Assembly (NCBI RefSeq): GCF_965641715.1
Contig: NZ_OZ282453.1
Reading direction: 5' to 3' (one strand)
Source: Escherichia coli
GTDB lineage: Bacteria; Pseudomonadota; Gammaproteobacteria; Enterobacterales; Enterobacteriaceae
DNA: 64,000 bases
Positions 57,379 through 58,431 of this stretch are shown here, one piece after another. The translations under genes and the position numbers were made by a program. Every line of letters starts with the position of its first letter. The first letter of the stretch is position 1. The notes below the pieces were generated by a model. That model saw only the letters and a program-made list of their open reading frames with translations. It searched no databases and was not told where the DNA came from.

Positions 57379-58431
57379 ATGAAAAAGACAGCTATCGCGA
57401 TTGCAGTGGCACTGGCTGGTTTCGCTACCGTAGCGCAGGCCGCTCCGAAAGATAACACCTGGTACACTGGTGCTAAACTGGGCTGGTCCCAGTACCATGA
57501 CACTGGTTTTATTCCTAACAATGGTCCGACCCACGAAAACCAACTGGGTGCAGGTGCTTTTGGTGGTTACCAGGTTAACCCGTATGTTGGCTTTGAAATG
57601 GGTTACGACTGGTTAGGTCGTATGCCGTACAAAGGCGACAACATCAATGGCGCATACAAAGCTCAGGGCGTTCAGCTGACCGCTAAACTGGGTTACCCAA
57701 TCACTGACGATCTGGACATCTACACTCGTCTGGGTGGTATGGTATGGCGTGCAGACACCAAGGCTAACGTACCTGGTGGCGCATCCTTTAAAGACCACGA
57801 CACCGGCGTTTCTCCGGTTTTCGCAGGTGGTGTTGAGTACGCGATCACTCCTGAAATCGCTACCCGTCTGGAATACCAGTGGACCAACAACATCGGTGAC
57901 GCAAACACCATTGGTACTCGTCCGGACAACGGTCTGCTGAGCCTGGGTGTTTCCTACCGTTTCGGTCAGGGCGAAGCAGCTCCGGTAGTTGCTCCGGCTC
58001 CAGCTCCGGCACCGGAAGTACAGACCAAGCACTTCACTCTGAAGTCTGACGTTCTGTTCAACTTCAACAAAGCAACCCTGAAACCGGAAGGTCAGGCTGC
58101 TCTGGATCAGCTGTACAGCCAGCTGAGCAACCTGGATCCGAAAGACGGTTCCGTAGTTGTTCTGGGTTACACCGACCGCATCGGTTCTGACGCTTACAAC
58201 CAGGGTCTGTCCGAGCGCCGTGCTCAGTCTGTTGTTGATTACCTGATCTCTAAAGGTATCCCGGCAGACAAGATCTCCGCACGTGGTATGGGCGAATCCA
58301 ACCCGGTTACTGGCAACACCTGTGACAACGTGAAACAGCGTGCTGCACTGATCGACTGCCTGGCTCCGGATCGTCGCGTAGAGATCGAAGTTAAAGGCAT
58401 CAAAGACGTTGTAACTCAGCCGCAGGCTTAA
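57379..58431 (+). CDS. ompA: Outer membrane protein A (variant surface loops)
   Basis: [21 protein letters not shown] signal, beta-barrel, APAPAPAP hinge, C-terminal OmpA domain; 350 aa. Confidence 0.95.

Follow-up and report, generated by a model that had tools for sequence, protein, structure and literature searches.

Which OmpA does this strain of Escherichia coli present on its surface, and do the loops that set it apart from the K-12 protein matter for phages? The question arises from a stretch of 64,000 nucleotides (the window), in which the initial annotation had noticed an ompA with variant extracellular loops and connected them with sensitivity to OmpA-dependent phages and bacteriocins. 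The best reading, with a probability of about 90%, is a normal ompA that carries an old barrel allele with a long loop 3 (ompA2, or pattern II, alpha) and a C-terminal domain of the K-12 type. It includes that the loop tips change the ligands, that the K-12 form is derived and that the loop blocks recombine. Gene identity, differences, location, frequency, divergence and mosaicism were computed, while phage and nanobody effects are from the literature.

The locus comprises the coding sequence, a leader and a terminator:

57379..58431, plus strand: ompA coding sequence, 350 codons and stop; NCBIfam NF008071; protein identical to WP_001307702.1 of strains Res13 and D8.
57246..57378, plus strand: 5' untranslated leader of ompA, 133 nt, with the Shine-Dalgarno motif GAGG at its end (57367–57370).
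58442..58479, no strand assigned: intrinsic terminator hairpin CCCCGCAGCTGCGGGG, preceded by an A-run and followed by T8, between the convergent genes ompA and matP and serving both.

According to the open reading frame list and its translation, the plus-strand frame runs from the ATG at 57379 to the TAA at 58429–58431 and encodes 350 amino acids. The equivalog model NF008071 ‘porin OmpA’ matched residues 1–350 with 674.7 bits (cut-off 277), and the protein has the Pfam pair PF01389 and PF00691. A longer frame starting with GTG at 57307 is a mechanical upstream extension; RefSeq places the start at the ATG in syntenic genomes. Antisense frames inside ompA, for example 57613–58032 on the minus strand, are also mechanical and lack support. 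The gene is located in the order yccS-sxy-sulA-ompA-matP-ycbZ, and sulA-ompA-matP is common to K-12, Res13, D8 and Salmonella houtenae.

The leader has the K-12 sequence: from 57128 to 57509, window and K-12 do not differ. Position 57246 is presumably the transcription start, as for K-12 ompA. The K-12 leader has a role in mRNA stability and in pairing with MicA. An Rfam search with relaxed thresholds between 56400 and 59300 matched the leader to no family and yielded only sub-threshold, terminator-like matches on the hairpin at 58442–58479. This hairpin has a predicted RNA folding energy of −22.5 kcal/mol (z = −3.5), and none of 200 shuffled sequences was as stable. A scan for consensus promoters and terminators overlooked it, probably through the loop and stem rules of the scan, and gave chance-level matches within the coding sequence only. 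The gene is a normal ompA, present once on the chromosome of an E. coli strain, with a common, known surface-loop allele. Judging from the leader, Shine-Dalgarno motif, signal peptide and terminator, which are identical or nearly identical to those of K-12, the protein would be expressed, inserted into the outer membrane and bound to peptidoglycan.

The domain layout is that of OmpA:

57379..57441, plus strand: signal peptide of 21 amino acids, the same in every Enterobacteriaceae OmpA aligned; helix 2–21 in the model.
57442..57966, plus strand: eight-stranded beta-barrel domain, precursor residues 22–196; PF01389 over residues 23–199, E = 6e-79.
57976..58014, plus strand: proline-rich hinge, identical to K-12.
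58054..58341, plus strand: periplasmic OmpA-like peptidoglycan-binding domain; PF00691 over residues 226–321, E = 3.5e-24; protein sequence as in K-12.

The 21-residue signal peptide would be removed, by a cleavage after A21 that we take to be the same as in K-12 OmpA. The eight-stranded barrel would enter the outer membrane with four loops pointing outward, and the proline-rich hinge would join it to the peptidoglycan-binding periplasmic domain. An AlphaFold2 model of the barrel has eight strands. The model is moderately confident (pLDDT 66) and was used solely for the placement of strands and loops; L1, L2 and L4 are poorly ordered, with pLDDT below 50. Hinge and C-terminal domain match PDB 2mqe over residues 205–350.

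The differences from K-12 were determined by alignment to the 346-residue OmpA of MG1655 (L001, 2501–3541) and to PDB 3nb3. K-12 OmpA, also known as pattern (I, alpha) or ‘OmpA-short’ (PDB 1BXW, 1QJP, 3NB3, 9FZC), is the product of the same gene at the same locus, with the same leader and strands, and 337 residues are identical in both proteins. Nine substitutions and a length difference of four residues, in or beside loops 1–4, separate it from the window OmpA. Signal peptide, proline-rich hinge and C-terminal domain are 100% identical at the protein level. The variable sites are:

57514..57516, plus strand: variable codon of loop 1, CCT for Pro25 (AAC, Asn in K-12); model loop 41–50.
57637..57645, plus strand: loop 2 codons GAC AAC ATC for Asp66-Asn67-Ile68 (Ser-Val-Glu in K-12); model loop 81–89.
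57763..57795, plus strand: loop 3 block Ala108–Asp118, with four codons more than K-12 SNVYGKN, placed by the alignment at 57778–57789.
57904..57906, plus strand: loop 4 codon AAC for Asn155 (CAC, His151 in K-12); model loop 170–183.
57934..57936, plus strand: CTG for Leu165 (ATG, Met161 in K-12) at the start of strand 8; model strand 184–195.

The initial annotation had compared the protein with K-12 OmpA. Its reference was correct, the two alleles are not identical, and all listed differences were present with none besides. In mature numbering, FIPNNG in place of FINNNG is N25P; its CCT codon is also present in S. houtenae. KGDNING in place of KGSVENG comprises S66D, V67N and E68I. Against K-12 SNVYGKNH, loop 3 has S108A, Y111P, an additional GASF and N114D, with 12 extra nucleotides at about 57777–57789. 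DANTIG for DAHTIG is H151N in K-12 numbering and N155 in the window allele; NGLL for NGML is M161L, or L165 in the window allele.

A clustering of these differences in surface loops had been proposed, and it holds for nine of the 13 variable columns, which lie in the DSSP-defined extracellular loops of the AlphaFold2 model (40 of 350 residues; hypergeometric P = 7e-7). Within the barrel alone, the enrichment has P = 2.7e-4. Of the other four columns, A108, F116 and D118 are at the ends of the strands next to loop 3, and L165, in strand 8, is a strand residue and not a loop difference. The periplasmic turns of the model contain none of the 13. The allelic differences alter only the outward loop tips and a few adjoining residues. 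Conservation of the barrel and the periplasmic domain, also part of the initial description, applies to the protein; the DNA of the barrel-encoding half differs from K-12-type alleles by about 9%.

This divergence is concentrated in a single tract:

57508..57984, plus strand: tract of high divergence from the K-12 allele, with 39 substitutions and a 12-nt indel; 51 of the 53 differences in ompA.

Overall, ompA is 5.0% diverged from K-12, versus 0.4–1.5% in the flanking genes. The barrel-encoding half has 90.9–91.1% nucleotide identity to K-12-type alleles. The C-domain has only two differences from K-12, both synonymous (58251 and 58398). At synonymous sites, the window allele is separated from K-12 by a divergence (dS) of 0.227 over the barrel and of 0.020 over the C-domain (Fisher P = 1.5e-5). 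Resolved by region, dS is 0.46 for the loops, 0.18 for the remaining barrel and 0.026 for hinge and C-domain. By its sequence divergence, the barrel-encoding half appears to be an old haplotype. Among nine E. coli alleles, the Hudson-Kaplan minimum is eight recombination events, and the loop-1 and loop-4 blocks swap together with linked synonymous markers. The loop blocks reassort between alleles by intragenic homologous recombination.

The age and direction of the change were approached with other Enterobacteriaceae. DNI in loop 2 together with a long loop 3 is present in E. albertii, Escherichia sp. E1V33, C. sedlakii, C. amalonaticus and S. arizonae. The 11-residue loop 3 of E. albertii, C. 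sedlakii and two C. amalonaticus is identical to that of the window. Several of the OmpA proteins of E. albertii, Citrobacter and Salmonella enterica with DNI and the long loop 3 also share the loop-4 N and the LL. Differences from the window are a D or N in loop 1 of several of them and species-level substitutions elsewhere. With DNI and the long loop 3 common to E. albertii, Citrobacter and Salmonella, the K-12 form looks derived, probably by a deletion of four codons. The ‘4-residue insertion’ of the initial annotation is thus a real length difference of four residues, read in the opposite direction: the outgroups are long, and a deletion in the K-12 lineage is the probable event. At the nucleotide differences between window and K-12, the window agrees with S. 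houtenae at 17 of 18 nonsynonymous sites, and the synonymous differences split 12:9. The barrel-encoding half may belong to a lineage shared with E. albertii that is Citrobacter- and Salmonella-like at the variable sites.

Neighbour-joining (NJ) trees of third positions were calculated separately for the barrel half and the C-domain, with 300 bootstraps and an outgroup sample without E. fergusonii and the main E. coli type strain. In the barrel-half tree, the window groups with E. albertii and E1V33, and K-12 is placed outside. A clade of window and K-12 that excludes E. albertii appeared in only 1.7% of the 300 bootstraps; window and E. albertii to the exclusion of K-12 had a bootstrap value of only 62%. 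In the C-domain tree, window and K-12 form a sister pair with 94% bootstrap support. The dS to the window barrel is 0.03–0.11 for E. coli long alleles, 0.12 for E. albertii, 0.25–0.30 for Citrobacter and 0.29–0.35 for Salmonella. A test for a deep lineage compared 23.5 with 14 synonymous differences and, at these small counts, gave a Fisher P of 0.08.

Incongruent domain trees could also result from a recent import of the window barrel from another species. The abrupt rise in divergence within ompA (breakpoints close to 57508 and in the interval 57984–58251) and the loop 3 identical to that of Citrobacter sedlakii and C. amalonaticus are in line with such a transfer. The barrel dS, however, follows the species order, and the window barrel therefore looks vertically inherited within Escherichia. 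It is the K-12 barrel that is outside the E. coli/E. albertii group, and the 12:9 split leaves the synonymous sites without a Salmonella bias. The barrel domain of a Shigella flexneri OmpA (P0015) is identical to that of the window; the proteins differ by two missing hinge residues (AP) and an exchange of I to L near the C-terminus in S. flexneri. This sharing needs no inter-species transfer because Shigella is phylogenetically E. coli. On the basis of the dS order and the synonymous split, a recent inter-species import was judged very unlikely.

In place of an import, the barrel of ompA may represent a trans-species balanced polymorphism that predates the split of E. coli and E. albertii, with the window long allele as the ancestral form and the K-12 short allele as a derived or imported outlier. 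This reading is tentative, with odds slightly below even. Balancing (frequency-dependent) selection would be the cause of the polymorphism. The pairwise test carries no direct signature of positive selection, since the loop dN/dS is 0.32 and not above 1.

The loop tips are likely contact sites for adhesins of OmpA-dependent phages, some bacteriocins, antibodies and conjugation proteins. As ligand contacts, they would therefore let the allele change the usable ligands and keep the structural role of OmpA. The suggestion that loop alleles affect phage susceptibility agrees with published experiments on natural OmpA loop alleles of the window's class. A reduced bacteriophage sensitivity by a novel ompA allele is claimed in the title of Power 2006 (AEM 72:7930, PMC1694255). 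Of eight natural OmpA variants in isogenic MG1655, T-even phages with a ‘type 2’ Gp38, which have a narrow host range, can use only some; phages with a type 1 Gp38 infect all eight (PMC12032242). Laboratory mutations to phage resistance affect OmpA residues 25, 70, 110 and 154, which belong to the same loop tips. Phage Sf6 uses OmpA of S. flexneri as its co-receptor, or secondary receptor (Parent laboratory; bioRxiv 10.1101/509141). The residues mutated in that work, D66, N67, P111 and N155, are all present in the window allele; the LPS of the S. flexneri host differs. The infection efficiency of Sf6 differs between E. coli and S. flexneri OmpA, and its affinities for barrels of the K-12 and the S. 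flexneri type are similar and nanomolar (bioRxiv 10.1101/509141). With both barrels bound at such similar affinity, the loop effect on Sf6 is not simply affinity. The nanobody Nb01 for the short isoform does not bind OmpA-long strains, and Nb01 and Nb39 tell the isoforms apart (PMC12259851). O-antigen can shield OmpA, so the phage phenotype depends on shielding as well (PMC12259851). The proposed link to bacteriocins is less clear: one paper, by its title, attributes recognition by colicins U and Y to a ‘conserved’ loop 1.

Could the loop differences be neutral drift in mobile, unconstrained loops without a bearing on phage, bacteriocin or immune interactions? The low order of L1, L2 and L4 in the model and the loop dN/dS agree with this, as does the indifference of type 1 Gp38 phages to loop variation. 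Alleles I and II were also indistinguishable in four surface assays. The loops do not vary continuously, however: the same small set of discrete states is found in different species and reassorts in blocks. Neutral divergence is highest at the loops (dS 0.46) and falls off with distance from them, as expected around sites under balancing selection. Type 2 Gp38 phages in the isogenic background and the two nanobodies discriminate between variants or isoforms, Sf6 efficiency depends on the OmpA, and the resistance mutations are in the same loop tips. Neutral drift is highly improbable.

The trans-species reading has a corollary: natural loop alleles could also tune the receipt of F-type plasmids through TraN-gamma. 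The exchange G154D in OmpA abolishes mating-pair stabilisation by F. H151N is three residues away from G154.

Under its published names, the window allele is ompA2 (Power 2006) or pattern (II, alpha) (Liao 2017), in the family ‘OmpA-long’. Liao 2017 equated pattern II with ompA2 of Power 2006, found it in 20.5% of 78 isolates and classed K-12 OmpA as (I, alpha) (PMC5413513). The Asn in loop 4 is exclusive to pattern II and separates it from pattern III (PMC5413513, Table 3A). The window protein has P25, DNI66–68, the long loop 3, the loop-4 Asn and the K-12-type C-terminus, which together define pattern (II, alpha). At the protein level, nothing distinguishes the window from ompA2, pattern (II, alpha) or WP_001307702.1. 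The identical protein, RefSeq WP_001307702.1, is encoded on at least 1000 public contigs and named porin OmpA [E. coli]. OmpA of Res13 has the same amino acids and this accession, which is also found in strain D8.

The frequency was surveyed in 5425 complete E. coli genomes, with the long family defined by a barrel of at least 95% nucleotide identity. A long-family barrel is present in 2119 genomes (39%); the other 3306 have K-12-like or other alleles at 90–95% identity. The loop-4 haplotype N155/L165 occurs in about 10–12% of complete E. coli genomes. The window allele is not unusual and belongs to one of the two major barrel allele families of the species. A close structural relative is OmpA-long in complex with nanobody Nb39 (PDB 9FZD, PMC12259851), with 173 of 175 aligned barrel residues identical to the window, including loops 1, 2 and 3. 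It has His and Met in place of N155 and L165, which is a K-12-like loop-4 block, and its loops match pattern III of Liao.

A rare or novel variant of this strain, for example with a recent insertion in loop 3 and an expected unusual phage-resistance profile, has a negligible probability and was ruled out: over the whole gene, the closest complete E. coli genome has 99.7% nucleotide identity and none has 100%, and only 75 have at least 99% identity to the window over the barrel half, but the three differences from the closest genome (58251, 58380 and 58398) are synonymous with an identical protein, at least 1000 contigs encode this protein, unrelated strains have it under the same WP accession, descriptions of the loop pattern date from 2006 and 2017, and a long loop 3 is found in 39% of genomes as well as in other genera. 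The observation of the initial annotation was correct and not new. Because allele, frequency and phage relevance are all published, the locus opens no new question.

For work with phages or for diagnostics, the OmpA isoform to expect in this strain is the long form with Asn155, whose barrel is that of the Sf6 co-receptor of S. flexneri. K-12 OmpA is not the norm of the species: roughly four of ten complete genomes of E. coli have a long-family allele, and the outgroups suggest that the K-12 form is the derived one.

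The ompA gene of the window is intact and is followed by a hairpin in the ompA-matP intergenic region.

57379-58431, + strand: ompA ORF, 350 codons, stop TAA
58442-58479: intergenic hairpin, CCCCGCAGCTGCGGGG flanked by an A-run and T8

A Shine-Dalgarno motif (GAGG) precedes ATG 57379, the annotated start in all syntenic RefSeq genomes; a longer ORF from GTG 57307 is a mechanical upstream extension and was rejected. The product scored 674.7 bits against the NCBIfam equivalog NF008071 'porin OmpA' (cut-off 277) and contains the Pfam domains OmpA_membrane (residues 23-199) and OmpA (residues 226-321). 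The gene order yccS, sxy, sulA, ompA, matP (convergent), ycbZ is that of K-12 and other E. coli. The 133 nt upstream of the ATG, which we take to be the K-12 ompA mRNA leader, are identical to the fetched K-12 sequence, and window and K-12 do not differ anywhere in 57128-57509. The hairpin (fold -22.5 kcal/mol, z = -3.5) can, judged from its shape, terminate both convergent genes, ompA and matP. In strain Res13, whose ompA is the closest, the sxy (tfoX) gene (L002 787-1416), syntenic with the window sxy upstream of sulA, carries the annotation of a pseudogene interrupted by an internal stop.

The protein was aligned to the fetched OmpA of K-12 MG1655. The K-12 allele was quoted correctly in the initial annotation, and all listed differences are present, with no further ones.

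Differences between window and K-12 OmpA (mature numbering)
Loop 1: FIPNNG versus FINNNG; N25P
Loop 2: KGDNING versus KGSVENG; S66D, V67N, E68I
Loop 3: longer form versus SNVYGKNH; S108A, Y111P, four additional residues, N114D
Loop 4: DANTIG versus DAHTIG; H151N (N155 in the window allele)
Strand 8: NGLL versus NGML; M161L (L165 in the window allele)

The four additional residues are encoded by 12 additional nt at about 57777-57789. The periplasmic domain, described earlier as conserved, is identical to K-12, as are signal peptide and hinge. The variable residues were placed on an AlphaFold2 barrel model (mean pLDDT 66) with eight strands (precursor residues 28-40, 51-65, 70-80, 90-107, 112-129, 137-155, 160-169 and 184-195). 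The four extracellular connections, 40 of the 350 residues, hold 9 of the 13 variable columns (hypergeometric P 7e-7; restricted to the barrel, P 2.7e-4). Three columns, A108, F116 and D118, are strand ends beside loop 3 in the model, and none of the 13 falls in a periplasmic turn. The proposed clustering in surface loops holds; L165 (NGLL) lies within strand 8 and is therefore not a loop change. The window protein is a standard OmpA, altered on the outward-facing surface alone.

Divergence from K-12 is concentrated in the barrel. The ompA genes differ at 5.0% of positions, compared with 0.4-1.5% for sulA, matP, ycbZ and the upstream genes, and 51 of the 53 ompA differences lie within 57508-57984.

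Synonymous divergence (dS) between window and K-12 ompA
Loops: 0.46
Rest of barrel: 0.18
Barrel overall: 0.227
C-terminal domain: 0.020
Hinge plus C-terminal domain: 0.026

The synonymous contrast between barrel and C-domain is significant (Fisher P = 1.5e-5). At synonymous sites, the window barrel is closer to Escherichia sp. E1V33 (0.11) and E. albertii (0.12) than to K-12 (0.23), and the nearest C-domain is that of K-12. Neighbour-joining trees of third codon positions (300 bootstraps) were calculated separately for both halves. In the barrel-half tree, window and E1V33 formed a clade without K-12 in 91% of bootstraps; the smallest clade of window and K-12 lacked E. albertii in only 1.7%. 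In the C-domain tree, window and K-12 were sisters with E. albertii outside (94%). The two trees are incongruent. The barrel polymorphism may predate the species split; this is suggestive only, since the grouping of window and E. albertii without K-12 had 62% bootstrap support and the direct comparison of synonymous counts gave P = 0.08.

In the barrel-half trees the short K-12 allele stood loosely beside the 351-aa ompA of Escherichia sp. MOD1-EC7003, which has an AHNNVTG-type loop 3 resembling pattern V of Liao et al. The grouping hints at a possible older lineage common to the non-long alleles.

The differences were polarised against Salmonella enterica subsp. houtenae, whose ompA shares the window state at 17 of 18 nonsynonymous nucleotide differences, often with the identical codon; for synonymous differences the ratio was 12 to 9. 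A DNA pattern scan of species-representative genomes yielded 18 ompA loci. A DNI loop 2 together with a long loop 3 was present in E. albertii, Escherichia sp. E1V33, Citrobacter sedlakii, three C. amalonaticus, one Citrobacter MAG and S. arizonae; the 11-residue loop 3 of the window recurs identically in E. albertii, C. sedlakii and two C. amalonaticus. Most of these outgroup proteins keep LL, and several the loop-4 N. Among the sampled loci, SVE combined with SNVYGKN occurred in E. coli only. Enterobacter-type OmpAs also have a short loop 3, but one unrelated to that of K-12. The length difference, first read as a four-residue insertion, is real; because the outgroups have DNI and the long loop 3 and Salmonella the window state, it is better described as a four-codon deletion in the lineage to K-12. 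Within this limited outgroup set, which left out E. fergusonii, the K-12 form is likely the derived one, arising by this deletion and loop replacements.

Six further alleles of the long family were read. Combat11I9 differs from the window exactly at K-12-like sites in 57510-57552, the loop-1 block, and has Asp25. Z0117EC0051, 81009 and CE0032f carry a K-12-like block at 57904-57984 (His, Met and linked synonymous sites), and E600003 has both kinds of block. Nine alleles gave 261 four-gamete site pairs and a Hudson-Kaplan lower bound of 8 recombination events. Loop-encoding blocks therefore reassort through homologous recombination, which explains the 22-25 OmpA 'patterns' of the literature.

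The exact 350-aa protein, under the name porin OmpA of E. coli, is encoded by no fewer than 1000 contigs of the public protein collection. It is identical to the Res13 product WP_001307702.1; strain D8, whose genome matches the 19 kb around the gene best, has this accession too. The outer loops correspond to pattern II (P / DNI / 11-residue loop 3 / N) of Liao et al. 2017 (PMC5413513), who recorded it for 20.5% of their 78 environmental isolates and equate it with ompA2 as described by Power et al. 2006. According to PMC5413513, 43% of the 524 isolates in the PCR screen of Power et al. 2006 had a long loop 3. The window allele is (II, alpha), because its C-terminal half equals K-12. The OmpA-long barrel structure (PDB:9fzd) agrees with the window in 173 of 175 aligned residues; the two exceptions are N155 (His) and L165 (Met).

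Among 5425 complete E. coli genomes, 2119 (39%) carry the long family, defined by a barrel-encoding segment with 95% or more identity to that of the window; the other 3306, at 90-95%, have K-12-like and other alleles. The 91-nt loop-4 segment occurs with at most one mismatch in about 550-640 genomes (about 10-12%), and N155 and L165 were retained in the three such alleles that were read. The nucleotide haplotype is scarcer, with 75 genomes reaching at least 99% identity across the barrel; the best whole-gene match (99.7%) has three differences, all synonymous.

The 4668-bp 'plasmid unnamed3' of E. coli BE311 (NZ_CP097216.1) carries at 25-1065 an lpp'-ompA' fusion beside TEM-116 and cat. A truncated Lpp is followed by a barrel fragment about 89% identical to nt 199-554 of the window ompA. 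It has the appearance of a cloning vector for Lpp-OmpA surface display that was deposited within a 'complete genome'.

Elsewhere, the window has a small phage-like island (1-10457) adjoining wrbA (ORF 10509-11114), with ORFs named by analogy with E. coli C 236-04A, and three RNA features at Rfam gathering level.

597-1265: DNA adenine methyltransferase-like ORF
4708-5418: transposase-like ORF
5735-7864: tape-measure-like ORF, 709 aa
8000-8794: baseplate-like ORF
8814-10457, - strand: recombinase-family ORF, 547 aa
15721-15799, + strand: naRNA4/CssrE, 82.5 bits
26482-26904, - strand: cspA-type thermoregulator leader, 161 bits
45720-45804, + strand: tRNA; the syntenic D8 feature is annotated tRNA-Ser

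Window 1-25000 was covered to at least 80% in 28 of 5426 complete E. coli genomes, with about 94-95% identity among the matches listed.

That loop alleles bear on phage susceptibility, as proposed initially, is the standard view and is supported by published work on Gp38 and Sf6. Phages K3 and Ox2 require the four loops, with resistance mutations at residues 25, 70, 110 and 154 (PMC12032242). The natural changes between window and K-12 affect residue 25 itself or lie a few residues from the other three. Tested with eight natural ECOR OmpA variants in MG1655 delta-ompA, type 1 Gp38 phages infect all, and type 2 Gp38 phages only particular combinations of loops 2 and 3 (PMC12032242). The window barrel recurs unchanged in a Shigella flexneri OmpA. 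Substitutions at D66, N67, P111 and N155 shift Sf6 infection efficiencies at similar binding affinities (bioRxiv 10.1101/509141). The nanobodies Nb01 and Nb39 discriminate absolutely between the two OmpA isoforms, short and long, and O-antigen keeps bulky ligands away from OmpA (PMC12259851). F-plasmid TraN-gamma uses E. coli OmpA, for which K. pneumoniae OmpA is no substitute; G154D blocks mating-pair stabilisation.

Sequence, frequency and phage relevance of the allele are already known, as is the structure of a near-identical barrel. The analysis adds the likely reversal of polarity with K-12 as derived, the domain-level tree incongruence and explicit block recombination. The pairwise loop dN/dS of window and K-12 (0.32) is by itself no sign of positive selection. 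Since discrete loop states recur across species, neutral divergence peaks at the loops and blocks reassort, the allele families are inferred to be maintained by phage-driven, and perhaps also immune-driven, frequency-dependent selection.
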